Part shown: positions 20,701 to 64,000 of the stretch, piece after piece
Numbering within the stretch: position 1 is the stretch's first letter
Layout: every line of letters starts with the position of its first letter
NCBI GenBank assembly: GCA_964291415.2
Contig: OZ219917.1
Coordinates: 1,024,001 to 1,088,000 of the forward strand
DNA length: 64,000 nt
Source of the DNA: Alphaproteobacteria bacterium
GTDB taxonomy: Bacteria; Pseudomonadota; Alphaproteobacteria; SP197
Direction of reading: 5' to 3'
The notes under the pieces: model-generated
The model's input: the letters and a program-made list of their open reading frames with translations, nothing else
Told to the model about the DNA's origin: nothing
The model's database searches: none
Made by a program: the position numbers and the translations under genes

Positions 20701-20815
20701 TCCAGGCAAGACCCAGGAGCACCAGAACGACCAGTCCTGCGAGAATCCCCAGACCGTGGATGAGGGTCCGCAGCAGGCGACGGCCTACAATTGCGGCATA
20801 CCGCACGGGAGCCAC
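17748..20815 (-). CDS. YhdP/AsmA2-like (DUF3971) envelope protein with one frameshift at about 18830
   Basis: N-terminal TM (ILAGLVVLVLLGLAWRLQDGPI), YWP....P.R.WI..N in the middle, C-terminal GT.VP...LN.....IPLLGDII.G...GGIFA.TF...GP..DP.V.VNPLS.LAPGILR.LF. The two ORF-track pieces join at ggccctcactccct. Start approximate. Confidence 0.8.
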
Positions 20816-20869
20816 TTGACCGCACCGGCCAGTCTGACCACGGTTGACGAAGTGCTTGCTGGTGCCGAC

Positions 20870-44189: not shown

Positions 44190-44241
44190 GGTTCTGAGCC
44201 GCCATCATAGAATAACCGTGACACGGGAACACCCGGCAGGC

Positions 44242-45300: not shown

Positions 45301-45491
45301 TGCCCGCCCTTCACCCCAACAGAACCTCCCGGGCGGCCGTAGCGGGTAGATGGCGGGTCGGCATGCCGGAGAATGAAATGCTTCGTCCCGTCCCTGGCAA
45401 CGGGCCGGTCAACATCGTTGATGACCGTTGAGTCATTGTTGGTTCAGGCCGCCATCTTGGAGCAACCGCGACAAGGGAACACCCGGCAGAG

Positions 45492-46550: not shown

Positions 46551-46709
46551 CCCCAACAGCACCTCCCGGTCGGCCGCGACGGGTTGATGGCGGGTTGGTA
46601 CCGTAGGGTGACACTCAGCCACCAGCCGCGGCCGTTTCGTGCAGCCTGAGCGAGTCTGCCAAGTGAAGGAGTCGGGGCGTCGCGCGTCCGCGATGCACCG
46701 GGGCCGGGT

Positions 46710-47747
46710 TCAGTTCGTCTCGACCTTGCCGCCGGCCTCGCGCCAGGCGGCGATGCCGCCGATCATGTGGCAGACATTGCCGACGCCACTCTGGCGCGAG
46801 CTCTCCACCGCCATCGCCGAGCGCTCGCCGAAAGCGCAGTAGTAGACCAGCCGGTGGCCGGGACGGCCGGCGAGCGCGCGCAGCGCTCCGCCAGGCTCGA
46901 TCATCTCCGCGAGACGATCGTAGGGCGCATGCACCGAGCCGGGGATGGTGCCCTCGCGGGCCCGCTCGCCGGCCTCGCGCAGGTCGACGAGGATGTCGTC
47001 GGGCCGGTGGCCGTGCATCACTTCGCGTGCGCTCATCGCGCACTCAGGATGTGCCTCGTCCTCCTGGCCGCGGCCAACGCTCAGGTTCGCGGGCACGGCC
47101 ACGTCCATCATCTTGGGGTCGGCGAGATTCAGGCCGTCCATCAGCACCGCGTACTCTGCGGGCGAGGCGACCTGGAGGCGGGGATTGAAGCGCCTTTCCT
47201 CGCCGATGGTGCTCACCGTGTCGCCCTTGTAGTCGTGGCCGGGGTAGACCAGGGTCTCGTCGGGCAGGGTCAGCAACTTTCCGAAGAGCGAGTCGTACTG
47301 CTGCAGCGCGTCGCCGTTCTGGAAGTCGGTGCGGCCTGTGCCCCGGATCAGCAACGTGTCGCCGGTGAAGACGCGGTCCTCCATCACAAAGCTGTAGGAC
47401 TCCGCGGTGTGCCCCGGCGTGTAGAGCGCGCTCAGGCTCACGCCCTCGATCTCGATCAGGTCGCCGTCGCCGACGCGCATCGAGACCACGTCCACCGGCG
47501 CCTCCCGGCCCATCACGGTGACGCAGCGGGTGCGGTCGCGCAGTTCCGCCATGCCGCTGATGTGGTCGGCGTGGACATGGGTATCGAGCACCTTGGCAAG
47601 CGTGAGGTCGAGTTCGTCCAGCAGCGCGAGGTAGCGCTCCACCCGCTCCTCGACCGGGTCGATGATGAGCGCCTCGCCGCCGGCGCGTCCGCCCAGCAGA
47701 TAGGTGTAGGTGCCCGAATCCTGATGGTAGAGCTGGCGAAAGATCAT
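46710..47747 (-). CDS. Persulfide dioxygenase (ETHE1-like MBL fold) fused to rhodanese
   Basis: MIFRQL, TYTYL, DTHVHADHISG, TPGHT, FTGDTLLIRG.GRTDFQ and YPGHDY. Rhodanese part VDLRE..E...G.IPG and YC.FG.RS. Confidence 0.92.
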   Translation of the reverse strand: MIFRQLYHQDSGTYTYLLGGRAGGEALIIDPVEERVERYLALLDELDLTLAKVLDTHVHADHISGMAELRDRTRCVTVMGREAPVDVVSMRVGDGDLIEIEGVSLSALYTPGHTAESYSFVMEDRVFTGDTLLIRGTGRTDFQNGDALQQYDSLFGKLLTLPDETLVYPGHDYKGDTVSTIGEERRFNPRLQVASPAEYAVLMDGLNLADPKMMDVAVPANLSVGRGQEDEAHPECAMSAREVMHGHRPDDILVDLREAGERAREGTIPGSVHAPYDRLAEMIEPGGALRALAGRPGHRLVYYCAFGERSAMAVESSRQSGVGNVCHMIGGIAAWREAGGKVETN

Positions 47748-47948
47748 CGTCGGTCTCCGCCCTCTTGGTTTTCCGGACGCCATTGTAGAGCCTTGCGGCC
47801 GCGTCCGGCCAGCGTCATCCGGAGTTTCATCGCGCTGTTCCGGTCTCGCTGGTCCTTCGGCTACGATGGCGTTGGCAGGGGCCACCTGGCCTCCATCGCA
47901 ACGGCGCCCCGCGGGCGGTCGGAGCCCGTGGGTTGCGGGGGGCGGAAC

Positions 47949-49055
47949 ATGAAGATCAGGCGCATCAGCGTCTACCGGATCGATCTGCCACTGAAGGAAT
48001 CGTACGGCCTCTCGGGCGGGCGACTTGTGACCGAACGCCTTGACAGCACGTTTGTCAGAATTGACACCGACTGCGGTCTCGAAGGGTGGGGCGAGGGGTG
48101 TCCCTGGGGCCATACATACCTTCCGGCCCACGGCCAGGGGCTGAGGGCCTCGCTCGAGGTGCTGGCACCCTCTCTGCTGGGACGGGACCCGCGCGCTGTC
48201 GAAACCGTCAACCGGGCGATGGACGCCTGTCTCCCCGGTCACCTCTACGCCAAGTCGCCCATCGACATGGCCTGCTGGGATCTTGTAGGCAAGGCGACGG
48301 GTGAGCCGCTGTGGCGACTCTTCGGCGCAGAGGAGCCCGCTGCGGTCGAGATCAACTCATCGATTCCCACCGGCACGCCAGCGGCCATGGTGGCGGGAAT
48401 CGAACGGGCCCGCAGGGAAGGATACCGTACCCACTCGGCCAAGCTGGGCGGACATGATGCGGCAGCCGACATCGAGCGGATCGAAGCCATCGAAGATGCC
48501 CGGGTGGCAGGGGAACAGATCACCTGGGACATCAACCGGGCGTGGACGCCTGCGATTGCTTTCGAGGTGCTGAACACCGTCCCGTCCATGGCATGGGTGG
48601 AGCAGCCCTGCGAGACCCTCGAGGAGTGCGCCATGGTGGCACGCAAGGTCCGCCAGCCGGTGTTGCTGGACGAATGCCTGCATGACGTCAGGGATCATCT
48701 CCTGGCCTGGCGTGCCGGCGCCTTCGCCGGCATCAAGGTCAAGCCCAACCGCCTCGGCGGCCTGACGCGGGCGCGGCGCATCCGCGATCTCGCCATGGAC
48801 GTTGGCTGGAGGATGCACATCGAGGATGTTGGCGGCAGCGCGCTCGCCGACACCGCTGCGGTTCACCTCGCCGCCTCCACGCCACAGCCGTACCGCATGG
48901 CCAGCTGGCCGGCCCATGCCCACCTGGCTCGTGATCCCGTGCCCGGCCAGGGGGTACGCAATCGCGGCGGGTTCCTGGCGCCCACGGGGTGTCCCGGAAC
49001 CGGAGTGGTTCCCGATGAGGAGCACACGGGACCGCCGGTCGCTGTCTACGGTTGA
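47949..49055 (+). CDS. Mandelate racemase/MLE (enolase superfamily) enzyme, hydroxyproline/proline-betaine subgroup-like
   Basis: MKI..I..Y..DLPL, GWGE.CP.G..YLP, AKS.IDMACWD, D.N, EQP, LDE and K..R.GGLT. The true start is 47949, not the ORF-track 46767. Confidence 0.85.
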   Translation: MKIRRISVYRIDLPLKESYGLSGGRLVTERLDSTFVRIDTDCGLEGWGEGCPWGHTYLPAHGQGLRASLEVLAPSLLGRDPRAVETVNRAMDACLPGHLYAKSPIDMACWDLVGKATGEPLWRLFGAEEPAAVEINSSIPTGTPAAMVAGIERARREGYRTHSAKLGGHDAAADIERIEAIEDARVAGEQITWDINRAWTPAIAFEVLNTVPSMAWVEQPCETLEECAMVARKVRQPVLLDECLHDVRDHLLAWRAGAFAGIKVKPNRLGGLTRARRIRDLAMDVGWRMHIEDVGGSALADTAAVHLAASTPQPYRMASWPAHAHLARDPVPGQGVRNRGGFLAPTGCPGTGVVPDEEHTGPPVAVYG

Positions 49056-49127: not shown

Positions 49128-49160
49128 GACGGGGTACTCCTTCGAATGAGGGCGCCAGTC

Positions 49161-51518
49161 ATGGCAACAATCGGGACCGAACCGGGAGGCGTGGGCGTTG
49201 CCGAGACGAACGTGATTCAACCGACGTTCTGGAATGCTCTTCCCCATTTTCTTCCCATCACCATCTTCCCCCTCATCATCGTGGCGGCGTTGCTGGGAGG
49301 CTGGTGGATCCTTGCCCCCTTCGTTTTCTTCGGGCTCGCCGGCCCGCTCGACCTTGCCTTCGGCATGGACGGGCGGAACATGGATCCGGCGAAGACACCC
49401 GAGCGGCGCCTTTTCTGGCACAATCTCCCGGTCTGGCTGTGGGCCGTTCTGTGGCCTGCAACCTTTGTCTTCACGGCCTGGCAGATTCTTGTTTCCGGCC
49501 ACCTGACCGACTTGGAAGGCGCGTTGATGGTGTTCGTCCTGGCCATGGAGGCCCAGGCGGTCTTCATCGTCGGCCACGAGCTCATCCATCGCCGACGGCA
49601 ATGGGAACGCCGCCTCGGCGAGTTCCTGCTCGCTTCGGCTTCCTATCCGCAGTACGCCACGGAACATGTCTACATTCACCATGCCTTTGTCGGAACACCG
49701 CTGGATGTGGGATCGGCTCCAAGGGGTGAAAGCCTGTGGCACTACTTCCCTCGCGAGGTTGCCAACAACCTTCTCGGTTCGTGGCGTGTGGCGCGCGAGC
49801 GTCTGGCGCGCAAGGGACTGCCGGTCTGGCACCGCAGCAACCCGTTCTGGCGCTATGGCCTGGCGACGGCGTTCTGGTATGCCGTCGTCTTCGCGTTGGG
49901 CGGACCATGGGCGATTCCGGTCTACATGGCGCTCTGTCTCGGCGTTGTCTTCTCGATGAAAGTGTCCAACTACATCCAGCACTATGGGTTGCGGCGCGTG
50001 CGTGTGGCCGGAGGGCGTTTCGAGAAGATCCTGCCCCGGCATTCGTGGAGTGTGGACTACAGGTTCAGCAACTGGATGTTCTTCAACATGCAGCGTCATG
50101 CGGATCATCATGCCGTCTGGGGGCGCCGCTATCCCCTCCTGCAGTTCCGTGGCGCCGACGAGTCGCCGCAGCTGCCCGGGAGCTACGGCAAGATGTTCGG
50201 GCTGGCCGTGCGACCGAAACGCTGGTTCGAGACGATGGATCCGCTGGTCGACGAGTGGCGGGCGCGGTTCTATCCGCACATCGACGACTGGAGTGCCTAC
50301 GACAGCCCGGTGTCCGCCACGCGACCGGAGTCCTTTGACGCAATCGTTGAAATCTACGCCGCGGCGCCGCGGCTTGCCGGCTGGATAGAACGTCAGCCGG
50401 ATCTTCTCGACGAGTTGCGCAGCAAGGAGTTCACCGATCTTGATCTCCCGAAGGGATTCGGCCCCGACGCCGGGGCCGAGACAATCGCCCGGCAGGGCCT
50501 GACACGCCTCTACTGGACCCACGAGTTCGGGGTCGCCGACATGAAGGAGGAAATTGCCGAAACACCGGTTCAGGATGCCGGAGACCTCGTGGAACTCGTC
50601 CGCGGCTGGTCGAACCGCAAGGCCTTCCAGGTCGGCATGCACACGTTGCGGGGCAACCTCACGCCGGTGGAGGCAGGCGGGGCACTGGCCAGCATCGCCG
50701 AAGCGGCGATCGCCGCGATTCTCCAGGCTGTCGTGATCGACACGACCGAGCGCACCGGCGCGCCTTTCGATGGCGGCATCGCCGCGCTGGTTCAGGGCGA
50801 CCTTGCCACCCGGGAGGTGGCGCCGGACACCCCGATGGAGGTCATGTTCGTCCGCGACGGGGATTCCAGGGCCAGTCACGAAACGCTCTGTCGGGAGTTC
50901 CGCGACGCTCTTGGGGAACTCGCGCAGGACAGCCTGCTGTTCGCACCCGCAGGGGCCGGCGACGCGGGGAAGGACGTGTGGTCCCTCGAGGAGTTTGTCG
51001 CGTGCCACAGTGAGCCGGGTGAGGACCTTGCGCGCCTCGCCCGTGCGCGGTGCGTGTTCACCGGCGGCGAAACGGACCTTGGCGAGCGAATCGCGGCAGC
51101 AAGACGGGAGCTTCACGTTCCGAAGGGCGCGGGCACCGATGATCCTGCCGACATCGAAGAGGCGGCGCTCATCCTGCAGCTGACCCTCGCCATGGAGGAA
51201 CCCGCGCCTGCGGCCGGTTCGGTCTTCCGGCGTGCCAGGGAAAAGGGACTGCTTGCGGCCGCGGCCGCCGATGATCTGTGTGAAGCCGCCGCTCTCTGGC
51301 GCAACCTGAATGGAATCCAGCGCCTGGTGATTGAGGGGGGTGTTGTGGACGACGCCGTGCCGGAAAGGGTCAGGGCCGTCATCGCGCGCTCCTGCGGCAT
51401 GGCGGGATACGATGCCCTTGAAGCCGCCATGGCCGACGTGACGTCAAGGGCAGGTCATGCCGTCGCGTCGCTCCCTTCTCTGGCCGATGGCGAAGCGCCC
51501 GCGGACGAGTCCGGCTGA
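49161..51518 (+). CDS. AlkB-type membrane diiron hydroxylase/desaturase fused to a degenerate GlnE-like C-terminal domain
   Basis: His boxes HELIH, EHVYIHH, NYIQHYG and QRHADHH plus TM helices. From about 50320 it aligns by eye with the second half of the GlnE in this window. Confidence 0.85.
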   Translation: MATIGTEPGGVGVAETNVIQPTFWNALPHFLPITIFPLIIVAALLGGWWILAPFVFFGLAGPLDLAFGMDGRNMDPAKTPERRLFWHNLPVWLWAVLWPATFVFTAWQILVSGHLTDLEGALMVFVLAMEAQAVFIVGHELIHRRRQWERRLGEFLLASASYPQYATEHVYIHHAFVGTPLDVGSAPRGESLWHYFPREVANNLLGSWRVARERLARKGLPVWHRSNPFWRYGLATAFWYAVVFALGGPWAIPVYMALCLGVVFSMKVSNYIQHYGLRRVRVAGGRFEKILPRHSWSVDYRFSNWMFFNMQRHADHHAVWGRRYPLLQFRGADESPQLPGSYGKMFGLAVRPKRWFETMDPLVDEWRARFYPHIDDWSAYDSPVSATRPESFDAIVEIYAAAPRLAGWIERQPDLLDELRSKEFTDLDLPKGFGPDAGAETIARQGLTRLYWTHEFGVADMKEEIAETPVQDAGDLVELVRGWSNRKAFQVGMHTLRGNLTPVEAGGALASIAEAAIAAILQAVVIDTTERTGAPFDGGIAALVQGDLATREVAPDTPMEVMFVRDGDSRASHETLCREFRDALGELAQDSLLFAPAGAGDAGKDVWSLEEFVACHSEPGEDLARLARARCVFTGGETDLGERIAAARRELHVPKGAGTDDPADIEEAALILQLTLAMEEPAPAAGSVFRRAREKGLLAAAAADDLCEAAALWRNLNGIQRLVIEGGVVDDAVPERVRAVIARSCGMAGYDALEAAMADVTSRAGHAVASLPSLADGEAPADESG

Positions 51519-51535: not shown

Positions 51536-52864
51536 ATGGCCCGCGATACTGGATATCCCCTGCAGAGCCCCATCGACGCGACAGACAAGCTCGCGGCGCG
51601 GGCCGGCTCTGACAGGGACTTTCGCCAGCGTCTCCTGGCACATCCCAGGGAGACCATCGAATCGGAACTCGGTGTGACCCTCGACGCAGATCAGGAAATC
51701 CATGTGCACGAAGAGTCGTGCACGGCCACCCACGTGGTGCTGCCACCGCTGGACAGGTACTCCAGGGCTGAGCGCGAGGAAGCGAAGACCGGCGCCGGAT
51801 CGTTGGAGTTCCTCCGCAGGACACTCCATGATCCGGCGCCGCCCGCGCGCGCCGCTGCCCCTGACCCGGCGAGACGCCGCGGAACCACGGCCTCTCCCCG
51901 GGCGCTTGCAGGAGAGGGCCGGCAGAGCATCCGCCGGGGTCTCGCGTTTCTCGAGACGACCATGGACGAACGGGGGGCATGGCACTGCATCCGGTTCAAC
52001 ATCGCCGATCCGGCGATACCGCGGCACTTTGAACGGCCGCCCTTCATCTCGGCGCTGTGCGCACTCGCCCTCGAGGCGTGCACTGAAGAGCGGGCCAGTT
52101 CCATCCGCGCGGCGACCAGGAGATATCTCGTCCACTCCATGGAGTACCCGGGGCTGTGGCGCTACTACCGCCACCTTCCCGCGGATCTGGACAGCACGTC
52201 GCTGTGCTCCCTTGCCCTCTCCGGTCATTCGTGGATCGCTCTGGGCAGGAATGTTCCGCACATGCTGGCGAACCGCGACGCCGATGGCCTTTTCCAGACC
52301 TGGCTGCTGTCGGAAGACGAACCCGATGTCGCGTCGGACTTCCGTATCGAGGCCGACCCCGTTGTCAATGCGAATGTCATCGCCTGCCTTGGCTGTCACC
52401 CCGCGACCAGGGAAGCCCGGCACTGGCTGGAGAACAAGGTCGTCGAAGACCGGCTTGAGAACGCGTCCAAGTGGTATCCCGACACGATCACGGCCTACTA
52501 CGCGATCGGCCGCGCCATGGTCCGGGCCGCCCCGGCCCTTGAGGGACTGCGCCCGGTTCTCGTTGAACGCATCCTGGCGCTCTGCGATGACGAGGGGGGA
52601 TGCGGCAATCTCCTGCAGACCTCCCAGGCCGTCACGGCGCTTCACACCATCGGGGGTCTTGAAGCCATTGACGTGACGCGCCAGGTGGAACGCTTCGTCG
52701 ATGCGCAACGGGACGATGGCAGCTGGCCGGAGTATCTGGCGTTTGGCGATCAGTCGCTGCGGTGGGGTGCGATCGGGCAGATCGGTCACGGTTCCGAGTC
52801 CGTGACTTCCGCGTTCTGCATCGAGGCCCTGGGGCACATGATCAACATCCTCGAGGGACGATGA
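51536..52864 (+). CDS. NHLP-leader-like domain fused to a prenyltransferase/class II terpene cyclase-like alpha/alpha-barrel domain
   Basis: N-terminus D.DFRQRLLA.P..TI..ELG.....I.VHE.....H.VLPP parallels the precursor leader. C-part has GLWRY, ADLDST, D.VVNANV and the QW motif AQRDDGSW. Confidence 0.8.
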   Translation: MARDTGYPLQSPIDATDKLAARAGSDRDFRQRLLAHPRETIESELGVTLDADQEIHVHEESCTATHVVLPPLDRYSRAEREEAKTGAGSLEFLRRTLHDPAPPARAAAPDPARRRGTTASPRALAGEGRQSIRRGLAFLETTMDERGAWHCIRFNIADPAIPRHFERPPFISALCALALEACTEERASSIRAATRRYLVHSMEYPGLWRYYRHLPADLDSTSLCSLALSGHSWIALGRNVPHMLANRDADGLFQTWLLSEDEPDVASDFRIEADPVVNANVIACLGCHPATREARHWLENKVVEDRLENASKWYPDTITAYYAIGRAMVRAAPALEGLRPVLVERILALCDDEGGCGNLLQTSQAVTALHTIGGLEAIDVTRQVERFVDAQRDDGSWPEYLAFGDQSLRWGAIGQIGHGSESVTSAFCIEALGHMINILEGR

Positions 52865-53024: not shown

Positions 53025-55346
53025 GTGGACGACAGCACCGTGACCGCAGGCACGACCCCACAGGGGATCCTGACCAGGTGGACTCCCGGGGATCGGGGTT
53101 CCGTCAGGACACCCTTGCTCACTCCGCACCTTGAGTTCCGCGCGATTGGTGACGATCGGGCGCTGCTGGTCTCCGAATCCTTCAACACCCTGCTGCATGG
53201 CAGACTGTGCTGCGATCTGATGCCTCTTCTCGACGGACGGCGCGAGGAGGATGGCATCATCGCGGCTCTCGACGGGATCCACGACGCCCGCGACGTTCGT
53301 TCCACCATCTCCTCGCTTTCCGAAAAGGGCTACGTTGTTTCAGGCGAACATGCGATGGACCGGCAGCGGGCGGCCTGGTGGACGTCGCTTGGTGCATCCC
53401 CACGCTGGGTCGAGGAACAGCTGGCGCTCTCGCGGGTTGTGGTCGAGGGAGATGAGGGAGAACTGGCCGCCTGCCTTGCCGTGTGCGGTGCCGTTTCGGG
53501 AGCCGAGGGGAAGGCCAGTCTCAGGATTGTTGTCTGCAACGATTATCTGGAACCGCGCCTCGAGGAGGTGAACCGGAGACAGCGCGAGGCGGACGAGCCG
53601 TGGATGCTTGCGCGGCCCCATGGCGTGCAGGCGCTCTTCGGTCCCGTCTTCCGGCGCCAGGGGCCCTGCTGGGAATGTCTGGCCAGCCGCATGCGCAGCC
53701 ACCAGGAAGTCCACGCGTTCCTTCGCAATGTGGCCGGAGAGGACGCCGCCTTCAGACCATTTGCCTCGGAAGGCGTGGTGCGGGACGGATTGTTGAGGCT
53801 GATTGCCGCAGAGATCGTCAAGTGGCTGGTCCTTGGCGAGACGGCTGCCGTCCATGATGAAGTGATCGCCGTCGATACCGGCGACTTTGCTGTTTCACGG
53901 CATCGGGTCATGCGCCGGCCGCAGTGCCGCGCCTGTGGAGACGATGGGTTGCACAGATCCGACCGTGCGCCGGTACCGGTGTGCCTGAACGCAAGTCCAA
54001 AGGCTGTTCGGACCAGTGGCGGTGCACGCTGCGTGGCGCCGGAAGCGACCCTGGCGACCTACCGGCACCTGGTCAGTCCGGTCAGTGGTGTCGTGACCTG
54101 GCTGTCGCGTACCACCGATGAAAGCGACCCGTGGCTTCATGTCGACTGGGCCGGAAGCAACCTGGGCATGAGGAGCCGCAGCCTGGCCTCCCTCAGGCGC
54201 AGTCTTCGCAGCAAGAGCGCCGGCAAGGGGAGCACGCCGGTGCAATCCAGGGTCTCTGCCCTTTGCGAGGCGATCGAGCGCCATAGCGGAACCCGGTCAG
54301 GTGACGAGATCCGCATTCGCAGGACATTCAACGGGTTCGACGGGAACGAAAGCGCGATTCACCCCAACGACGTGCAGTTGTTCAGCGACAACCAGCTCGA
54401 CAACGCAAAAGACATCAACGAGAAGGGTCACCCCTACAACATCGTGCCGGCCCGCTTCGACCCTGACGCGGCGGTCGACTGGACTCCGGTGTGGTCGCTG
54501 ACCCAGCGGCGACATCGCTATCTGCCGACGTCGATGCTTTACAGCATGGCGGCCGAGGAGCGTGGTCCGGCGGACCTGATCGCCGATTCCAACGGTTGCG
54601 CTGCCGGCAACACCCTGGAAGAGGCCATCCTGCAAGGCTTCTATGAACTCGTCGAACGCGATGCCTTCGCCATCTGGTGGTACAACCGGCTCAACATGCC
54701 GGCGGTCGATCCCTGCGCCTTCGATGACCCGTACCTTCTCGATGCAACGGCCGTCTACGCCCGCCACGGGAGGGAAGTGTGGATGCTCGACATCACGTCC
54801 GATTTCGGTATCCCAACCTTCGTGGCACTCTCTCGCAGAGTCGACGCCGCCAGCGAGGACATCATCTACGGCGCCGGGACCCATGCCGTTCCGCGACTGG
54901 CCGCCCTGCGGGCGGTGTGCGAACTGAACCAGTGTCTGACGTGGCTGCCGCGGCCCGGAAGCCGCGACGGCCGGCCGACGATCGATGACCCGTTTGTGCT
55001 GTCATGGTGGAGAACCGCGCGCCTTGCCGGATGCCCGTGGCTGGCGCCGGCAACCGAGGGGACGGCTGGCAGGGCGTCGCAGCCTTCCATCGCAGACTCG
55101 GCGGATACGCGCGACGATGTGGAAAGCTGCCGCGCGCTTGTGGAAGCCAGGGGCATGGAGTTCCTGGTGCTTGACCAGACCCGCCCCGACATCGGAATGC
55201 CGGTTGTCCGTGTCATCGTGCCGGGGATGCGCCACTTCTGGGAACGCTTTGCCCCGGGCCGTCTCTACGAGGTGCCTGTCAGCCTGGGATACCGGGCGCA
55301 TCCGCCTGGTGAATCCGACCTCAACACCGCGCCTGTCATTGCCTGA
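53025..55346 (+). CDS. Fused TOMM leader-binding/YcaO cyclodehydratase (SrpC-like)
   Basis: E1-like part (GPVF...GPCWECL..R, RPQC.ACG). YcaO ATP motifs SAGKG, SALCEAIER and SNGCAAGNTLEEAILQGFYELVERD, then PVVRVIVPG.RHFW.RFAPGRLY. Confidence 0.93.
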   Translation: MDDSTVTAGTTPQGILTRWTPGDRGSVRTPLLTPHLEFRAIGDDRALLVSESFNTLLHGRLCCDLMPLLDGRREEDGIIAALDGIHDARDVRSTISSLSEKGYVVSGEHAMDRQRAAWWTSLGASPRWVEEQLALSRVVVEGDEGELAACLAVCGAVSGAEGKASLRIVVCNDYLEPRLEEVNRRQREADEPWMLARPHGVQALFGPVFRRQGPCWECLASRMRSHQEVHAFLRNVAGEDAAFRPFASEGVVRDGLLRLIAAEIVKWLVLGETAAVHDEVIAVDTGDFAVSRHRVMRRPQCRACGDDGLHRSDRAPVPVCLNASPKAVRTSGGARCVAPEATLATYRHLVSPVSGVVTWLSRTTDESDPWLHVDWAGSNLGMRSRSLASLRRSLRSKSAGKGSTPVQSRVSALCEAIERHSGTRSGDEIRIRRTFNGFDGNESAIHPNDVQLFSDNQLDNAKDINEKGHPYNIVPARFDPDAAVDWTPVWSLTQRRHRYLPTSMLYSMAAEERGPADLIADSNGCAAGNTLEEAILQGFYELVERDAFAIWWYNRLNMPAVDPCAFDDPYLLDATAVYARHGREVWMLDITSDFGIPTFVALSRRVDAASEDIIYGAGTHAVPRLAALRAVCELNQCLTWLPRPGSRDGRPTIDDPFVLSWWRTARLAGCPWLAPATEGTAGRASQPSIADSADTRDDVESCRALVEARGMEFLVLDQTRPDIGMPVVRVIVPGMRHFWERFAPGRLYEVPVSLGYRAHPPGESDLNTAPVIA

Positions 55347-55355
55347 GGGAGTGTC

Positions 55356-56534
55356 ATGGACACAGACAAGGCCATCGCACTGACCCAGGACCTTCTGGCC
55401 CAGGAGGGCGGGACCATGGGCGACCTGCTCGGTCACTTCCGGAACAGGGTGTCGCCGACCCTCATCGATGACGCTGAATGGGATCGTGTCCTGGCATGCG
55501 CCCGAACCCTTCCCATCACGATGGGCGCGCTTCCCTTCGGTTTTGAACTGCCGCTGCATGTGCCGGAGCCACAGGCGGATCTAGGCGTATCCATGGCGAG
55601 TGGAACCAGATCGGCGGAGTTCTTCCGGGAGCGCGCCCGGGTTCACAGGACCGATGATACCCTCGGCACACTCATGCGACTCTTCGATCACATGGAAGGC
55701 GGGGTCTCACCCTTGCGCGACATTGTCGGCCGCAAGGTGATGCTGGAGTACGACATCGGCTCGGCTGAAGGCGGTACGCCTTCGCGTCCGGCCTTGTTCC
55801 TGAGGCCCGGTGAACGACCGATCGTCGGCGCGGGCGGCCAGGTCGATGATGTCCTGCTGGTGGGCGATGCCCTTGTTTCGAGTCACGGCTGGACGATGGG
55901 TGCAGGCCAGCGCAAGGCACTCTCGCAGGCCTACCTGGCGCAGCCGGAGGATACGCGCATGGACTCGTTCGGGATGTTCCCGTCCCGCTCACGCGCCGTC
56001 CGGCTGGCCATCATGGGGTTCGCAAACCGCCGGCAGATCGAAACCTACCTGGACAAGGCGGGGTGGCCAGGCGAAGCCGCGGCCGTCGATGCGGTCATGG
56101 CACGTTTCATGGAACGCGTGAACATCGTCAGGACCGGGGTGAACATTGACGTGACGGAAGAGGGGCTGGGCCCCGCCCTCGGTCTGACGCCGATCGTCCG
56201 GCAGAGGTACACCAAGGATTCACGGTACTGGCTCGATGGCCTGACCGACTGGGCGCCGTTCCTGGACGCCCTGAGTCACGAGGACATTGTCGTGCCCGGC
56301 AAGCTGGAAGCGCTGGCAGGCTGGGTCTCGAAACCGGAACACCTGTTCGCACGGTCCGGACGCTACGTGCTGCTGCGAGGCATCCACCATGTCAAGCTGG
56401 TCATTTCGGCGAACCGGCTCTGCAAGGCCAAGGCCTATGTCTTCATGGTGCTTGTCGGGCGCCGTGTCACTCTGACGCCGAACACAACGGCCCCCGATCC
56501 GGATCGAACCGGGGCAATCCTCGCAGGTTCTTGA
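55356..56534 (+). CDS. Conserved hypothetical RiPP-associated protein (possible prenyltransferase)
   Basis: 392 aa, GGGAG RBS, 9 bp after ycaO. Motifs FGFE..L, LEYD, GWPG and HHVKL..AKAY. Function inferred only. Confidence 0.7.
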   Translation: MDTDKAIALTQDLLAQEGGTMGDLLGHFRNRVSPTLIDDAEWDRVLACARTLPITMGALPFGFELPLHVPEPQADLGVSMASGTRSAEFFRERARVHRTDDTLGTLMRLFDHMEGGVSPLRDIVGRKVMLEYDIGSAEGGTPSRPALFLRPGERPIVGAGGQVDDVLLVGDALVSSHGWTMGAGQRKALSQAYLAQPEDTRMDSFGMFPSRSRAVRLAIMGFANRRQIETYLDKAGWPGEAAAVDAVMARFMERVNIVRTGVNIDVTEEGLGPALGLTPIVRQRYTKDSRYWLDGLTDWAPFLDALSHEDIVVPGKLEALAGWVSKPEHLFARSGRYVLLRGIHHVKLVISANRLCKAKAYVFMVLVGRRVTLTPNTTAPDPDRTGAILAGS

Positions 56535-56570: not shown

Positions 56571-56822
56571 TTACCAGCAGCAGCACAGACCGGCCGAGAC
56601 CGCTTCGAGCTGCTCTTCGGTAATGTTCGGGTCGGGCGGCAGTGCAACATGCACCGTCTGCATGTCACTCTGATGAACCACGACGTTCATCGAGTCTGGA
56701 ATCGTGATTCCAAGTTCGTTGCAGATGGTCCCTTTCGGATCTGCAAGAAGCTCTTGCCTGAAACCGGCGTCGACAGCGGATTTGTCGACAATCTGCTGCA
56801 ACATCTCATTGCCGTTTCTCAT
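56571..56822 (-). CDS. srpE: Proteusin/NHLP RiPP precursor, 83 aa, core LCCCW (SrpE-like)
   Basis: GGAGAG RBS then MRNGNEMLQQIVDKSAVDAGFRQELLADPK...VHVALPP...TEEQLEAVSAG-LCCCW*. NHLP leader with a double-glycine-type (AG) cleavage site. Confidence 0.9.
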   Translation of the reverse strand: MRNGNEMLQQIVDKSAVDAGFRQELLADPKGTICNELGITIPDSMNVVVHQSDMQTVHVALPPDPNITEEQLEAVSAGLCCCW

Positions 56823-56908: not shown

Positions 56909-59215
56909 TCAAGCATTTCCGTTCGTGTTGTTGCCGCGGTCAACCATCCGCAACAGTGCGGGCAGGAGCGTCAGGTCGGCAAGGAGTGCAAAGGCGATGA
57001 TCAACGCCGTCAGGATCCCCACCTGTGCGGTGGGAATGAAGGGAGAGAAGGCGAAGATCAAGAAGCCGGCCACCAGGACGAGAGTCGTCGTGAAGACGGC
57101 GCGGCCGGCAGTGTCGAAGGCGTAGCGCACGGACTCCCCGCTGTCCTTGCCATGGTCGAGGCGCGCTTTGCGGTACTTGCTGAGAAAGTGCACCGTATCG
57201 TCGACAACGATACCGACCGTCATGGCCACGACGACCGACAGGGAGAGTCCCACCTGCCCCACCGTCAATCCCCAGACGCCGAAACCCAGCACGGCCGGGA
57301 GCAGGTTGGGAATGATGCTGATCAGGCCCAGTCGCAAGGATCTGAGGGCGAAGAGGAGTATGGCGGAAATCGCGAGCAGCACGACCATGGTTCCGACCAG
57401 CATGGCCCGGATATTGCGTTGACCGATCCAGGCGAACAGCACCGCCGGTCCGGTGCTGTTGACGCCGGCCACGTTGGGTGCGTTGTCGCTCAGCCAGGCC
57501 CTGGCCCGTGCGTTCAGTTCAAGCAGTTCCTGAGAGCCGAGAGACTGGGCCTGGACCGATACGCGTGTTGCCGACTTTGACCAGTCGATCTGGTTGTTCA
57601 CGTCCAGGCCCTGAGGCAGGGAGAGCTCGTAGAGCAGCAGGTACTGTGCGGCCAGCTCCCGGCTTTCGGGGAGGCGGTAGGCATCAGGGTCGTCACCATG
57701 CATGGTCTGGTTGAGACGCCGGAAGGTATCGGTGATGACGGCGACGTGGCGCACTCGCGGCTGGTCGCGGTACCAGTCGGCGAACGCGGCGACATCGGTG
57801 AGGAACGCCGGGTCCGTGACGCCGCCTTCGGCGGGAGCTTCCAGCGAATACTCGAGCAGGGTGTTGCCGCTCAGCCGCTCGTCCATGAAGTCCGTGTCCT
57901 GGCGGAACTCGACACTCTCGTCGAAGAAGTGGACCAGGACATCGTTGAGCTCGTTTCGCGGGATCGCGAGGATCATCGCAATGACGAGCACCAGCCATCC
58001 AAGGATGATCAGCTTTCCGTGCTTGATCACAACGTCGGCCAGGTGGTGCATTGTCGGCGCCTGCGGCCGCCTGTTCCTTGGCGCGCGAACGGGGAGCAGC
58101 GACAGCATGGCCGGAAGAAAGGTCACGGACAGGATGAAGGACGTGACGATTCCGATGGCGACAAAGCAGCCGAGTTCACGATAGGGGGGCACCTCGGAAA
58201 AGTTCATGCCCAGGAATCCAAGGGCGGTCGTGAGGCTCGCAAGGAAGATCGGGTGCAGGTTGAGCCTGATGGCTTCGACGATGGCATCGTGTTTCGAATC
58301 GCCCGCGCGCAGACGTTGCTGCAGGGCAACCAGCAGGTGAACGCAGTTGGCCACGACAATCATGAGGATGATGGTTGGCGCCGGGGCGATGGGCGGAGAA
58401 AACTCCAGGCCGATCCAGGCCCCCAGGCCCATGGAGGCCAGTATGGAAAAGATGATGACAAGGCCGGTGGTCACCACGCCCGGCCAGCCCCGGACGAGAA
58501 TGCCGAGAATCAAGGCCATGAGAAGGAGGCTGGCCGGCAGGAAGATCATCTGGCTTTCAACCGAAGCCTCGAGAAAGGTCTGGTTGACCATCACCGTACC
58601 GACGATGCGAAGATCAACGCCGGGGAAACGCGTCTCTGCCTCGGCGGCTATCGTTCGGGCGAATTGCGCCACTTCGGCCACGGCTTCCAGCTGGTCGCCT
58701 TCAGGCATTTCCAGAGTGACATTGACAACGCTGACATCGCCATTGCGGGCCAGCATGCTGCCGGCGATGCGGGGGTCGAGGAGGGCAATGTCACGGATGC
58801 GTGACCGTGCTTCAACCCGCGTCAGTTCCTGCGGATCGACCAGGTCCTGAACCACCAGGTCATCGCCGTCGGCCGTCGTGTACTGGAAGTTGGCCAGGGA
58901 GTCGACGCGCCGTGACCAGGGTGTCTGCCAGGCAGCCTCGGTCAGCCAGACGGCGGCAGAGAGCGCCTCGGTGGAGGTCGCATCGCCGTCGTCGGGAACA
59001 ATCAGGAAGACGACATTCTCGTTCTTTCCATAGGTGTCTTCCAGGTCTTCCAGCGCCAGAAGCTGCGGATTGTCGTCATCAAAGAAAATGCGGTAGTCGG
59101 CGGAGAATTCCAGCAGGAGCATGCCGACGGAGGCAAGAGCGACCAGGATGGGCGCAACGAGGATGACCAGCCAGCGGTTGGCGAGCACCCGTTCCGCATA
59201 ACGTTCAGCCGTCAT
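56909..59215 (-). CDS. MMPL/RND-family exporter
   Basis: Two repeats of TM + periplasmic loop + 5 TM. LTTALGF, GIVVDDTVHF and LLPALL. Confidence 0.9.
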   Translation of the reverse strand: MTAERYAERVLANRWLVILVAPILVALASVGMLLLEFSADYRIFFDDDNPQLLALEDLEDTYGKNENVVFLIVPDDGDATSTEALSAAVWLTEAAWQTPWSRRVDSLANFQYTTADGDDLVVQDLVDPQELTRVEARSRIRDIALLDPRIAGSMLARNGDVSVVNVTLEMPEGDQLEAVAEVAQFARTIAAEAETRFPGVDLRIVGTVMVNQTFLEASVESQMIFLPASLLLMALILGILVRGWPGVVTTGLVIIFSILASMGLGAWIGLEFSPPIAPAPTIILMIVVANCVHLLVALQQRLRAGDSKHDAIVEAIRLNLHPIFLASLTTALGFLGMNFSEVPPYRELGCFVAIGIVTSFILSVTFLPAMLSLLPVRAPRNRRPQAPTMHHLADVVIKHGKLIILGWLVLVIAMILAIPRNELNDVLVHFFDESVEFRQDTDFMDERLSGNTLLEYSLEAPAEGGVTDPAFLTDVAAFADWYRDQPRVRHVAVITDTFRRLNQTMHGDDPDAYRLPESRELAAQYLLLYELSLPQGLDVNNQIDWSKSATRVSVQAQSLGSQELLELNARARAWLSDNAPNVAGVNSTGPAVLFAWIGQRNIRAMLVGTMVVLLAISAILLFALRSLRLGLISIIPNLLPAVLGFGVWGLTVGQVGLSLSVVVAMTVGIVVDDTVHFLSKYRKARLDHGKDSGESVRYAFDTAGRAVFTTTLVLVAGFLIFAFSPFIPTAQVGILTALIIAFALLADLTLLPALLRMVDRGNNTNGNA

Positions 59216-59385
59216 GTGCCATCTCTCCACGGCTGTCCCTCACCACCGTGTCGGACACGACCACACTCGACGCTCGCGGACGGATCGTCGAAAGCAGGGA
59301 ATCATGGGGAAGGGCGCTCATTGCGGCAGGTCGCAAAACAAGGTTGGGCCGGCCCGAATGCCATGTCAACGGTCCGCTTCACGGG

Positions 59386-62306
59386 TCAGGCGATCTGGCG
59401 TCTGACCAGATTCCGGAAGACGCCATCGATGTCCATGAGTTCGCTGAAGGAGCCGCTCTCCACAATCTTCCCGGCTTTCAGCACATGGATGCAGTCAGCC
59501 TTCTCCAGCGTCGACAACCGGTGCGCGATGACAAGTCTCGTTGTGGTCAGAAGGGCGAGGTTCTGCATGACCTCGGCCTGGCTGTCGTTGTCGAGCCAGT
59601 TGGTTGCCTCGTCGAGGAGCATGATTCGCCGGTCGCCGATGAGGGAGCGGGCAATGGTGACACGCTGGCTCTCTCCGCCGGAGAGAACCGAACCGCTGCC
59701 CCCGACCATCGTCATCATTCCCATGGGCATGGCCTTGATTCCGCTTTCTATTCCGGCCGCCCGGGCAGCCTCCCAGACCTCTGCAGGCCCCACTCCCTCG
59801 TGGTGCGCGACAATGTTGTCCCAGATGTCCTGGGGGTGCAGCCGCACCGCCTGGGGTACGGTGCCTATCTTGCGGCGCACCTGCTTGAGATTGAGGTGCT
59901 TGAGGTCCCGTCCGTCGTAGTAGACGGCCCCGGACGTCGGCTGGTCGATACCAAGCGCCAACTGGAAGAGCGTGCTCTTTCCGGCACCGGATTCACCGGC
60001 AATCGCGACGAATTCGCCGGGACGGACATGGATTGTGACATCATCGAGAACCAGGGGCCCTTCGGGTTCGTATCGGAATGACACATGGTCGAACAGGATC
60101 TCGCCGCCGAGACGCTCGACCAGCGCACCCTCTTCCCCGGCTTCGGGAACCGCGGCAAGCAAGGGGCGCATCTGCCTGAATGCCGGCACCAGGGCAGCCA
60201 CGGCGCCGACCGATTCACCAAGACGGGCCACAGCCGATTGAGACGCGATGAACACCATGAAGACGACGAGGAAATCGCCGACCGGAAGCGTCCGCGTTTC
60301 GAATGCCGCCACCGCAAACAGCAGCACCGCTCCGGCGAAGAACGGAAGAGCGGCGCCAAAGGCACGGACGTGCTCCTCGATACGGTGGACTTCGAGCTCC
60401 GCGCGCTTTTGCTGGCGATAGTCCCCGGCCCATATGGCGAAAGCCGATCCTTCCGCACTTTCCACACGCAGCTTGGCGATGCCGCCGATGATCTGGAACA
60501 GCCGTCCGGTCACGCGTCTGGCCGCGCTGATCATTCGTCCCTGGGGTACGAGCTGGCGCAGCCCCAGCACGACGGTCACGAGAAGCGAGAGGAGGCTGAA
60601 AGCGAGAACGACAAGACCCAGAGAGGTATCGTAGAAGAAGGTGATCCCGAGAACCGGAACGAGAAACAGGATTGACAGCAGGCTGTCGGACACGACTCCC
60701 TGCAAGCCGTCACGAACATTCTGGAATGTCATGCCCGACATCGCCAGGTCACCGGTTGGCTGGCGACGCAGGACAGCGGGCGGAAGGCGCATGAGGCGGT
60801 CCCAGAAGGCTGCTTCGACCCGCGATGCCGAACGTCCTTCCAGGCGCATCAGAATCGTGCTTTGCAACAGCTGAAGCAAAGCGCCCAGAAGACCGAATCC
60901 CGCCAGTGTCACAGCCACGACATAGAGGATGCCGACGGTTCCGCCGGCCGTGGCCTGGTGAGCCACAAAACCAAGCGCCAGCACCGGCAACAGCTTGATC
61001 AGGCCGCCGAAGAACCCGGTTGCCAAGAGCCGGGCAAGATCGGCGCCCGACCCCTTGAAGGCGATGTCCAGGAGATCGGCCGGCTTGACGGACCTTGACG
61101 GCAATGGCCGATAGAACATCCAGGCTTCAGCCTTCAGCCGCCGGCGCGCTCGCCTGCGATCCGGACGCTGCGTCCGCTCGCCGGGTCGACCTCACGATAG
61201 TGCCCGAACAATCCCGGCAGCAGGACGACAGGCCTGTCGTCGTCGGACCGGAATGCCAGAATTGCGCTGCTGTCTCCACGCCACCATGCATTGTCCGGGG
61301 AGATCCTGAGGCGGCGGGCACGGACGCCGGACGCATCGAGAATGTCCGTGAGAGCGGGCGCGGAACCGGAGGCGTGGCGTGGCGGGATCCTGAAATCGAT
61401 TCCCTGGTGGCGGCCGATGATCTTCAGTGCGTCCGCAAGTGCCGTGTCGCCGATGTCCTCGCCGATCGGCATGTCGTACATGTTGAACAGCTTCTGGCGC
61501 GCGTCGCGCTCGGCCGTGCGCCGGCTGGCGATCCGCGCGCGTTCCAGGTTTGCCTCATCGACCACCGCCAGTTGCCGGTTGAGCCGCTCAAGCGCGAGAG
61601 CGGCAGCATGAAACGTGGCCAGTGCCGGCAACAGGGTGCCCTGTTCGGCCAGTGACCGGCTCGATGTGCCGGACACGGTGACCCCTGCATGGAAGGTGAG
61701 CCAGCTTGTCCGGGTCAGCGGCACCAGGGTTTCGCCGCGACCGCCTTCCTCCGGTTCGATCATGTCCATGTAGAGACCGGCGCCGTGCGAGGGAATGGAT
61801 ACCCACACAACGCCCTGGCGTACGGAAAGAATGCAGGACTCCAGGGACCGGGTCACACCGGGTTCGGCGAGGGCAGTGGCGTATGGAATGCTGCCGACGA
61901 ATCGCGACAGGGTTTCGGTGATGGCCTGCAACCACGTGTCCGTCTGTTGCGCCAGTTCAGCCGGATCGACTTCGTGGAGCAGGGACACCGGCAGACGCAT
62001 CAGAAGGGTGTCCGGCAGTCCCTTCGCCAGCAGGCCAAGTGTCGTCTCCTTGCCGTCGCCTTCAGAATCCGGCGCGACACCGGGCAACAGTTCACCTGCC
62101 TCGCGGCGAAGCAGGTGTTGTGGTGACGCCTGCTCCACTCCGTCCCTGAATTCCACCAGGAAGAGATCGACGCTGCCCCTGGCAATGAACCACACGTGAT
62201 CGGGTTCATCGAGCGGCACCGGCAGGTTACCGGCGCAGGGACAGGGCTTGCCGGCGCGTTGCGCGAGTTCGGCAATCGATGTGTATGGAGGCGACTGATC
62301 GCGCAT
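59386..62306 (-). CDS. NHLP bacteriocin system ABC transporter ATP-binding/permease subunit with one frameshift at about 61140
   Basis: N-piece has a cyclic-nucleotide-like domain (VWFI..G.VDLF) and WWRGD...LAF...PV.LLP. C-piece has FYRPLP, GESGAGKST, LSGGE.QR and LDEAT. Adding one base at gccgg|cggctg restores RLKAEAWMFYRP. Confidence 0.85.
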
Positions 62307-64000
62307 CAGCCTGACCTGGTCAGTCGCGAGTAGACGCCATCGGCATTGGCGATCAGTTCGTCGTGGGTGCCCCGCTCCACTTCACGGCCCCCGTCGAGCA
62401 CGATGATCTCGTCGCAGTCACGCACCGCGCTCAACCGGTGCGCCACGATCAGGCACGTGACGCCACGCCGACGCAAGGCATCGTCGACATACTCTTCCGT
62501 TGCCGCGTCAAGGGCGCTGGTTGCCTCGTCGAGCACGAGCACGGTCGGATGACCCACCAGGGCACGGGCAATCTCCAACCGCTGGCGCTGGCCGCCGCTG
62601 AAGTTCATGCCGCCCTCCTCGACAAGGGTGGCGTACCCGAGAGGGCGTTTCAGAATGTCCTCATGGATGCAGGCGTCCCTTGTCGCATCGACGATGACCT
62701 CATCCGGAACGGCCGGGTTCCACAGGGTGATGTTGTCGCGCAAGGTTGCGGAAAAGAGCACGGTTTCCTGGTTCACCATGGAAATGGACCGCCGCAGCAC
62801 CTCCTCGGGAATCTCCTGGCGAGGGTGGCCGTCAAACAGGATCTCACCCGACCAGGGTTGATAGAGTCCCGCAACCAGATGCGCCAGGGTCGACTTGCCG
62901 GAACCGCTGGCTCCCACCAGAGCGACCCGCTGCCCGGGATTCAGGATGAGGTTGAAGTCAGAAATCAGGGGTGGCCGGCTCCTGTTGAAACCGAAGGTGA
63001 CGTTTCTCAGTTCGACCTTTCCTGCAAGCTGGAGGCGCCTGTTGAACGTCGTGATGGAAACCCGGTCCGGTTCCCGGCGGCTGAACACGGGATCCTCCGT
63101 GGCCCTGGCAACGTCTTCCAGCCTCTGCAAGTCGGTTTCGAGAGCCTGCCGCCTGTCGGCGAACTCCAGGAATCGCCCGACAGGCGCGAGAAACATCTCC
63201 GCCAGGATGTAGAAGGCGACCAGTGTCCCCAGGGTCATGGAGCCGGTCATGACCATGGTGCCGCCGATCAACAGGATTGTCGCGCTGCGCAGAGCGGCGA
63301 TCAGGTCCGGCAGGGCGCCATTGAGCGCACCCAGTTCGAAGTGGGCCTGGCGCGCACGAAGTTCGCGGGCCTGATGACCGCCCCAGCGTGCAAAGAACCG
63401 GTCGTCGGACCCGGTCATGCGCAGGTTGTCGGCATGGTTGAGCATCTGCATGCCGATGCCGAGCAGAAGTCCCTGTTCGCGCCGCATGGCCTGGCTGCGC
63501 ACGGCGCGCCGGATATTGAAGACGTGGGCGAGTCCCGCATGGATGAGAGCCAGCGACAGCACGACCAGTGCCAGCACGGGATCGTAGGCGAGCAACACCG
63601 CGAACAGCACGGCGCTCGTGGCCATGTCGATGATGAGCACCAGAAACTGCTCTGTCAGGGTTTTCGCCACCCGGTCGAAGGATGACACCCGGTCCGTCAG
63701 GTCGCCGGCAAGCCGGTGTTCGAAGAACTCGACGGGCAGGCGCAGCAGCTTCGTCAGTCCACGGCTGTAGCCGGTTACCGATATGCGGATGGCGAGCCGC
63801 TTGAGAAACCTGTGCTTGAGCAGGGTCAGCAGGTAGACGAGCACACCGCCGCCGATGAGCGCGGCCACAAGGCCAATCCAGGTTCCCTGGTTCAACAGGA
63901 CATGGTCGACGAAGGCGCCAAGGACTGCCGGCACAACCAGCGACAGCAGTGTCAGCATGAGCGCGCAGGCCGCCACTCCGGCAAGCGAACTCCACAGTCC
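62306..64000 (-). CDS. NHLP bacteriocin export ABC transporter (peptidase/permease/ATPase), 5' end outside the window
   Basis: LRLPV.FF..R..GD, GASGSGKST, F..TLRDNITLWN, NFSGGQRQRLEIARAL and LDEATSALD. The C39 domain is expected upstream but not visible. Confidence 0.88.
   Translation of the reverse strand, partial: GLWSSLAGVAACALMLTLLSLVVPAVLGAFVDHVLLNQGTWIGLVAALIGGGVLVYLLTLLKHRFLKRLAIRISVTGYSRGLTKLLRLPVEFFEHRLAGDLTDRVSSFDRVAKTLTEQFLVLIIDMATSAVLFAVLLAYDPVLALVVLSLALIHAGLAHVFNIRRAVRSQAMRREQGLLLGIGMQMLNHADNLRMTGSDDRFFARWGGHQARELRARQAHFELGALNGALPDLIAALRSATILLIGGTMVMTGSMTLGTLVAFYILAEMFLAPVGRFLEFADRRQALETDLQRLEDVARATEDPVFSRREPDRVSITTFNRRLQLAGKVELRNVTFGFNRSRPPLISDFNLILNPGQRVALVGASGSGKSTLAHLVAGLYQPWSGEILFDGHPRQEIPEEVLRRSISMVNQETVLFSATLRDNITLWNPAVPDEVIVDATRDACIHEDILKRPLGYATLVEEGGMNFSGGQRQRLEIARALVGHPTVLVLDEATSALDAATEEYVDDALRRRGVTCLIVAHRLSAVRDCDEIIVLDGGREVERGTHDELIANADGVYSRLTRSG

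Follow-up and report, generated by a model that had tools for sequence, protein, structure and literature searches.

AlkB-type membrane diiron oxygenases are known with fused partner domains, and the parts of a review that we drew on (PMC8918992) name only rubredoxin and ferredoxin/ferredoxin-reductase as such partners. In the AlkB-AlkG protein of Fontimonas thermophila (FtAlkBG), Glu271 is the sole carboxylate ligand of Fe2, lies 3.2 Å from the substrate methyl group and has been proposed as the proton donor, and the equivalent glutamate in the FtAlkB structure (E281) adjoins the irons (PMC10113152 and PMC10110569, in the sections used here). The srp clusters are sponge-derived proteusin clusters for peptides made on ribosomes and modified post-translationally (RiPPs), a definition from Nguyen et al. 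2021 as cited in the sections used of PMC10858898. They are described, in the part covered of bioRxiv 10.1101/2023.06.09.544420, as ubiquitous in sponge species, highly transcribed and carried by sponge-associated bacteria of several phyla. Within the portions of the srp literature covered (PMC10858898, PMC10286304, bioRxiv 10.1101/2023.06.09.544420, PMC9426513), the SrpE precursor has the core LCCCW and an (I/L)TEEQL motif, the YcaO protein SrpC forms three thiazolines, and SrpI adds bromine to the C-terminal Trp; gene roles there are limited to these three proteins. Here we analyzed a 64,000-nucleotide stretch of an alphaproteobacterial genome (GenBank assembly GCA_964291415.2, contig OZ219917.1, positions 1,024,001 to 1,088,000; hereafter the window), in which an srp-type cluster contains a gene that joins an AlkB-type domain to a domain resembling the glutamine synthetase adenylyltransferase GlnE. 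An earlier sequence-only reading of this DNA had remarked that known AlkB fusions are to rubredoxin or ferredoxin and not to GlnE, in agreement with the review. Literature searches found no relevant report of an AlkB-GlnE fusion, nor of YcaO together with AlkB in sponges.

The fusion gene and its junction

The fusion gene lies at 49146..51518 on the forward strand and consists of a 790-aa open reading frame (ORF) without an internal stop. Met6 at position 49161 is the likely start, giving a protein of 785 aa, the length of the database copy; residue numbers below are those of the 790-aa ORF. A protein search with the C-terminal part of the fusion yielded 308 protein clusters at E <= 1e-3, and most of the best 120 of these 308 are ~800 aa long and contain both Pfam families. 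A genome scan found the same architecture in genomes of many phyla, with at least 579 fusion matches (579 of 600 pattern matches were confirmed). For comparison, 80 fusion loci of 53-92% identity were kept, and 78 of them read to their own stop without an internal stop.

The sequence-only reading had seen the AlkB part continue in frame into ~400 aa of GlnE-like sequence, and had singled out 50270-50320 as the place where a stop or chimera might show. The frame is open throughout, and single contigs crossed this junction in four of four sequencing runs with no such break. One of these runs (X1) is a possible source sample, while the other three (X2, X3, X5) differ by ~5-9% and are thus taken to represent relatives. 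Many "joints" at 85% likeness in the read mapping were ascribed to metagenome copies from other organisms and set aside. We found no evidence for an assembly chimera or a two-gene read-through, and the chance of either is negligible, as they are ruled out by the open frame, the genome matches, the stop-free loci and the bridging runs. The AlkB/GlnE fusion is a real and widely shared gene, and its anatomy is secure.

The AlkB-type domain and its iron site

The AlkB-type domain (~residues 20-380; 49203..50285, forward strand) is matched by Pfam FA_desaturase over residues 129-351 (E 1.2e-26) and by the solved AlkB structures 8f6t_A (E 2.7e-43) and 8sbb_A (E 1.8e-39). Residues 50-369 align to 46-363 of 8f6t_A, which points to homology along the full six-helix membrane domain. 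The nine His ligands are all present, align to those of the solved AlkB and are invariant in 28 family members. On the forward strand they fall in HELIH (H144, H148; 49575..49589), EHVYIHH (H174, H178, H179; 49662..49682), NYIQHYG (H279; 49968..49988) and HADHH (H318, H321, H322; 50097..50111), the four boxes that the sequence-only reading had recognized. That reading had also noted the unusual NYIQHYG. Here Q278 occupies the position of AlkB's only carboxylate iron ligand (Glu271 of FtAlkBG) and replaces the Glu of NYxEHYG in 28/28 aligned members. The likeness to the F. thermophila proteins (AlkB-AlkG, 8f6t; FtAlkB, 8sbb) thus covers residues 50-369 and the nine His ligands, whereas the fusion differs in having Gln for Glu271, a GlnE-like partner instead of rubredoxin, and a location in a RiPP cluster and not in an alkane-degradation operon.

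We surveyed the glutamine in the AlkB part's 150 best representatives, in which long proteins (at least 700 aa) have Gln in 11 cases and Glu in 3 (P0257-P0259, two of the three with Pfam GlnE), and short proteins with the motif have Glu in 77 cases and Gln in 17, some of them fragments. Since 3 of the 14 long proteins keep Glu and some unfused AlkB-like proteins have Gln, we discarded the idea that Gln278 marks the fusion uniquely. The closest unfused relatives (36-44% identity) are mostly annotated as "alkane 1-monooxygenase" from Rhodobacterales and keep Glu. Short homologs above 50% identity were likewise not accepted as genuine unfused forms: four inspected Gln carriers look truncated or frame-shifted, and P0131 is uncertain. 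Members of the fusion family are labeled "fatty acid desaturase" in NCBI records. A 647-aa protein (P0383) combines an AlkB-like domain carrying NYVQHYG with C-terminal TPR repeats, another non-redox fusion partner.

None of 23 genomes of the genus, the organism's own included, gave a match to rubredoxin (PF00301), in a search whose control was positive in 7 of 14 well-known genomes. The srp-type AlkB fusion is carried by 11 of these 23 genomes (again including its own), none with a PF00301 match. The electron donor is therefore probably not rubredoxin, because no match occurs in the 23 genomes. R150, R155, R291 and K294 align with the rubredoxin-docking patch of FtAlkB, as judged from the 8f6t_A/8sbb_A alignment read against the residue list in the section used of PMC10113152. 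The GlnE-like domain contains no metal-cluster motif, and its only near-invariant Cys residues in the 28-sequence alignment are C636 and C750. According to the covered parts of PMC8918992, rubredoxin-fused AlkBs resemble the present protein in bearing an extra domain, C-terminal in the rubredoxin class, but the rubredoxin and ferredoxin partners carry electrons, whereas the GlnE-like domain lacks a motif for a metal cluster.

The GlnE-like domain

The C-terminal part (~residues 385-780; 50298..51485, forward strand) corresponds to one nucleotidyltransferase half of GlnE and is closest to the adenylylation (C-terminal) half; the ORF holds one such half of ~400 aa and not two in tandem. The Pfam GlnE model matches residues 466-542 with 25.7 bits against a cut-off of 24, so that both Pfam families which the sequence-only reading had expected are detected by the scan. 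Positions 633-734 of the NCBIfam GlnE model match residues 476-577 (E 2e-16). The C-half of a canonical GlnE, encoded on another contig of the same genome as a second copy, is 36% identical (E 1.7e-29). With this protein the domain shares the GlnE-specific motifs EFTDL, ARRGL, W-x-N-x-K-x-FQ-x-G-x-H and TRAR.

The sequence-only reading had aligned these ~400 aa to the C-half of a GlnE-like ORF within the window, and BLASTP recovered its quoted residue pairs (22% identity, E 7e-7). Similarity to GlnE therefore stood, but the choice of that ORF as the standard did not, because its own C-half motif is degenerate and the canonical GlnE lies elsewhere. The window ORF (948 aa; 20756-23602, forward strand) has an intact N-half motif (GKLGGRELNYSSDIDL) and a degenerate C-half motif (GRYGRRTPSFGAAIDL), and falls just under the NCBIfam cut-off (717.9 versus 724). 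Both motifs are intact in the canonical GlnE (G000:C4, L002:733-3537).

Structure prediction supports the same relationship. Residues 380-790 were modeled with AlphaFold from 46 homologs (predicted local distance difference test score, pLDDT, 85.8; predicted template modeling score, pTM, 0.88), and the model superimposed on E. coli GlnE with Z 28.6 and a root-mean-square deviation (rmsd) of 3.3 Å over 365 residues for 1v4a_A, and with Z 26.3 and 3.4 Å over 346 residues for 3k7d_B. Foldseek returned E-values of 5.5e-10 and 3.5e-8 for 1v4a and 3k7d, respectively. The superposition foreseen from the letters alone is thus borne out by the model. The next-best structural match was the AMPylation domain of DrrA/SidM (6yx5_B, Z 18.4), which likewise has the GlnE-type nucleotidyltransferase fold outside nitrogen control, but DrrA is catalytically active and, with 8% identity, its resemblance is confined to the fold. 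The family profile favored the adenylylation half (3k7d, E 1e-16) over the other structure (1v4a, E 1.6e-4). From these sequence comparisons, we assign the origin of the domain to the adenylylation half of GlnE. In the model, the likeness to E. coli GlnE (1v4a, 3k7d) extends to the whole domain and its flanking helical subdomains; the differences are that the fusion has one half only, has lost the Gly-rich loop and both Asp residues, and places the domain behind a membrane enzyme.

The catalytic motif is degenerate in the window, as the sequence-only reading had seen, and also throughout the srp subfamily. Residues 551-565 (GDLATREVAPDTPME) align to the E. coli GlnE motif, and the degenerate motif GDLATREVAPDTPMEV (50796..50843, forward strand) places P563 and E565 at the two catalytic Asp positions in the profile alignment and the orthologue comparison. 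In the profile alignment with E. coli GlnE, the family consensus at the motif is lgdlAsrevapgvaleilf. The canonical GKLGG...SDLDL has become GDLA(S/T)...x-x-h-x-h in the srp subfamily, with GDLAT...TPMEV in the window. The two Asp positions vary among orthologues from E/D to none (TPMEV, AELDI, AALDI, VAIRI, VAVGM). Because the Gly-rich loop is lost and both Asp positions are variable, this is a GlnE half whose active site is not conserved. Judged by these residues, the domain is a pseudo-enzyme: its fold is complete, but the triphosphate loop and the pair of metal-binding Asp residues are gone.

We compared nonsynonymous and synonymous substitution rates (dN/dS, Nei-Gojobori) in eight non-independent pairs, and obtained 0.25-0.44 for the GlnE-like part versus 0.06-0.21 for the AlkB part. 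These ratios indicate that the GlnE-like part is under purifying selection and is still functional. Leader or substrate binding, one of the two roles that the sequence-only reading had offered, is a guess. Complex prediction of the GlnE-like domain (46-row alignment) with SrpE (31-row alignment) scored 0.00 in two uncontrolled runs, a result that bears neither way.

The srp cluster and its conservation

DNA encoding LCCCW occurs once in the window versus none expected. The match lies in an SrpE-type precursor of the nitrile hydratase leader peptide (NHLP) class (56571..56822, reverse strand; 83 aa plus stop), which contains ITEEQL and the LCCCW core and ends in ...ITEEQLEAVSAGLCCCW; the ORF called at the match ends ...NITEEQLEAVSAGLCCCW. 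An SrpC-type fused YcaO cyclodehydratase is encoded at 53025..55346 on the forward strand (YcaO E 1.1e-95, with matches to cyclodehydratase models of thiazole/oxazole-modified microcins, TOMM). A predicted SrpI-type, flavin-dependent Trp halogenase (Trp_halogenase match) lies 1.3-2.4 kb past the window end (G000:C1:1089330-1090406, reverse strand). The window resembles srp clusters in having SrpE with both ITEEQL and LCCCW, YcaO, and the Trp halogenase just past its end. By this gene content, the cluster is identified as the published srp RiPP cluster and not as a new one. No desaturase is tied to srp in the literature portions covered, in which the terms hydroxylase, alkane and adenylyltransferase were checked in part and AlkB was not searched for, and whose scope did not include the founding paper and supplements.

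To compare gene neighborhoods, we searched the 10-kb flanks of the 80 loci plus the window (81 loci) by tblastn. YcaO was present in 71, SrpE in 61, a 392-aa neighbor in 60 and a 442-aa neighbor in 57 of the 81 loci, followed by ABC exporters (50 and 41), an MMPL transporter (40), the halogenase (36) and a LolA-like protein (21). The link to a RiPP pathway proposed in the sequence-only reading is borne out by the frequency of YcaO and the SrpE precursor. YcaO starts -60 to +150 nt from the fusion stop in 57 of its 71 loci. The gene for the 442-aa protein adjoins the fusion in 47 of 57 loci, upstream in 40 and downstream in 7, the window among the latter. Six short conserved ORF clusters (150-190 aa) without a Pfam match were taken as shadow frames of real genes and rejected.

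Ten other genomes of the genus contain the orthologous fusion, and the same ten have a YcaO of at least 60% identity alongside it. Two genomes have a YcaO of lower identity (51-53%), in clusters with other NHLP cores and with no fusion, prenyltransferase-like, cyclase-like or MMPL gene. In L030, L035, L041, L043 and L045, the cores are LSCCL or LCCCG(L/V/I), without Trp, and the fusion, YcaO and MMPL genes are kept. Among the loci without YcaO, L071, L074 and L091 end at most ~1.1 kb from the fusion, and L025 ends 2.8 kb after it, with a cyclase-like gene between. In four Paracoccaceae/Amylibacter records of metagenome-assembled genomes (L036, L037, L038, L040), a LolA-like gene and a Trp halogenase come after the fusion, and up to a distance of 10 kb there is neither a YcaO nor a prenyltransferase-like or MMPL gene. 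In one genome (G014:C1:1877970-1880275), the srpC orthologue beside the fusion is split into two overlapping frames (residues 8-499 and 499-773), an apparent frameshift.

Neighboring proteins and a possible lipid moiety

Downstream of the fusion, the 442-aa protein (51536..52864, forward strand) consists of an NHLP/nitrile-hydratase-like N-terminus (E ~1e-7) and a class II terpene-cyclase-like domain. Its C-terminal region aligns with the cyclase domain of drimenol synthase (9mhs_B, E 1.8e-5) and gives a weak match to squalene-hopene cyclase; D-L-D-S is invariant in 24 aligned sequences. The protein is an apparent enzyme carrying its own "leader".

The 392-aa protein (55356..56534, forward strand) has no Pfam match, and its family profile gave 0 matches against PDB sequences. 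Its predicted structure (pLDDT 86.2) suggests an ABBA aromatic (indole) prenyltransferase-like fold, with the best matches to the indole prenyltransferases 6zry (E 4.6e-6), IptA and DMATS1, the last at template modeling (TM) scores of at most 0.53 when scaled to query length and 0.56 when scaled to target length; PatF and LimF, two cyanobactin enzymes, are also among the fold matches. There is precedent for leader-dependent geranylation of a RiPP Trp (PMC12715784, in the part used). Further along, on the reverse strand, are an MMPL/RND-type transporter with a sterol-sensing-like domain (56909..59230) and two ABC exporters flanking a 390-aa protein without a Pfam match (59386..63976; 50, 48 and 41 of the 81 loci for the three genes). 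Because of the prenyltransferase-like, cyclase-like, MMPL/RND and LolA-like neighbors, we consider that the product probably bears a lipid, presumably isoprenoid, part.

Paralogous fusions outside srp clusters

Pfam GlnE also matches AlkB-type representatives at 37-45% identity (P0254, P0258, P0259, P0263, P0265). In addition, two genomes of the genus contain four paralogous fusions of 31-35% identity outside any srp context (L105:9491-11998 and L106:8534-10978; on the reverse strand, L107:8533-11073 and L108:8787-11237). Those in L105 and L107 adjoin an unassigned ~400-aa protein and an AcrB-type RND pump, L107 is also near a P450, and no YcaO is present. From the representatives at 37-45% identity, the AlkB/GlnE architecture is judged to be older than the srp subfamily. 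A near-canonical nucleotidyltransferase motif is kept in L105, L107 and P0263 (GRLGDRR...SDVEL) and in P0258 (GDLGVRD...SDVEL). Thus, the ancestral fusion may have been an active nucleotidyltransferase, of which the srp type later became a pseudo-enzyme, and by the same motif the L105 and L107 fusions may be active nucleotidyltransferases.

Proposed role and alternatives

We propose, with a confidence that we put at about an even chance, that the fusion is a membrane tailoring oxygenase of the srp pathway for a lipid (isoprenoid) part of the product and that it carries a non-catalytic adaptor domain. The AlkB domain would perform an O2-dependent oxidation, most likely a hydroxylation, of a hydrophobic portion of the maturing peptide, one that reaches into the inner leaflet. 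The oxidized part would probably be an isoprenoid chain that the ABBA prenyltransferase-like neighbor adds and that, in most clusters, would afterwards be shaped by the terpene-cyclase-like protein. The cytoplasmic GlnE-like domain would transfer no nucleotide; as an adaptor, it would keep the leader-bearing substrate, or soluble enzymes (SrpC first), at the membrane enzyme. Electrons would come from a donor other than rubredoxin.

Several observations weigh against this proposal. What the gene does, beyond its domain anatomy, is inferred throughout. The usual AlkB electron path is missing in the genus, and the enzyme, in which Gln takes the position of the one carboxylate close to the irons, could have another chemistry than hydroxylation. 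YcaO is absent in ten loci, six of them with full 10-kb flanks. The srp literature, in the parts covered (PMC10858898 and related papers), describes thiazolines and a brominated Trp and no lipid. The five loci with Trp-less cores have neither the halogenase nor the cyclase-like gene; since they keep the fusion, any role of the fusion must be independent of both. Finally, the founding srp paper or its supplements may already name or discuss the gene.

Tentatively, and with clearly less confidence, the proposal may be extended to the product itself. The srp product could be a lipopeptide and not a small brominated thiazoline peptide: it would be prenylated, its chain cyclized and then oxidized by the fusion, with the pseudo-GlnE domain nucleating a membrane maturation complex with SrpC. 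In the paralogues with SD-x-E, hydroxylation could be coupled to O-nucleotidylation of the new hydroxyl.

If the proposed role is correct, RiPP maturation would have its first AlkB-type membrane diiron oxygenase. An adaptor role could also explain why SrpC alone has been reported as poorly active and hard to purify, and would offer a route to reconstitution of the pathway. The fusion points to srp chemistry that has not yet been described, namely a step in the membrane, an oxygenase whose iron site is altered and probably a lipid moiety. It is also a clear example of how purifying selection can retain a once catalytic domain as a pseudo-enzyme, with active-looking sister fusions that allow direct comparison. 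The points that are new here are this selection on the GlnE-like part, the finding of no rubredoxin in the 23 genomes of the genus, the near-intact motif in non-srp paralogues, and the prenyltransferase- and cyclase-like neighbors.

The AlkB domain might instead act on the peptide core, converting thiazolines to thiazoles or oxidizing Cys or Trp, and so replace the flavin mononucleotide (FMN)-dependent azoline dehydrogenase that srp clusters seem to lack. We consider this unlikely, but a number of the above results fit it. Core oxidation would draw electrons from the substrate, so that no rubredoxin would be needed, in line with the 0/23 genomes of the genus. The close spacing of the YcaO start and the fusion stop (57/71 loci), the loss of the proton-relay Glu to Gln in 28/28 sequences, and the retention of the fusion where the halogenase and cyclase-like genes are missing are also consistent with it. 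In addition, no nitroreductase-type dehydrogenase was seen among the Pfam-scanned neighbor families present in at least 19 of the 81 loci. However, the closest relatives of the domain are alkane 1-monooxygenases, whose substrate tunnel opens into the membrane (PMC10113152, section used), the paralogous fusions lie beside RND pumps and a P450 and not YcaO, and we came across no description of a membrane diiron enzyme that oxidizes azolines, nor of an alkane hydroxylase in the YcaO RiPP literature.

Another possibility is that the gene encodes an ordinary lipid or alkane hydroxylase, which is merely carried along with the srp cluster and leaves the cluster's product untouched. Its NCBI name and the existence of paralogues outside RiPP clusters would suit such a role. 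It is made very improbable by the tight synteny with srpC over many phyla, by the finding that the same 10 genomes in the genus have orthologues of both the fusion and YcaO, next to each other, and by the absence of the fusion from related NHLP clusters.

The sequence-only reading had suggested that the GlnE-like domain senses nitrogen status through PII or glutamine and gates the oxygenase. Descent from the adenylylation half and the kept GlnE-specific motifs would be expected of a sensor, but these motifs may be purely structural. A PII gene occurs within 10 kb in 0 of 81 loci, and the single PII match of the genome is ~580 kb away. The domain is one GlnE half only, and the cluster contains no nitrogen-metabolism gene. 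The suggestion thus gained no support, and we give it very little weight.

Equally little weight falls on the idea that the domain is a live enzyme which nucleotidylates a hydroxyl made by AlkB or a residue of the peptide, although the near-canonical motif of L105, L107, P0263 and P0258, and some srp-type members with acidic residues at both positions (e.g. AELDI), are what this idea would predict. The window has Pro and Glu at these positions and GDLAT as its Gly-rich loop, and orthologues range from E/D to none (VAIRI, VAVGM), variation that a catalytic site would not tolerate.

Genes upstream of the fusion

The genes that lie upstream of the fusion in the window (44170-49055, forward strand) were not seen among the conserved neighbor families. 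They are two tandem S-Me-THD (DUF917-type) paralogues and a gene of the enolase family resembling hydroxyproline dehydratase. The enolase-family ORF is 762 aa long, and its 5' end is probably over-extended.

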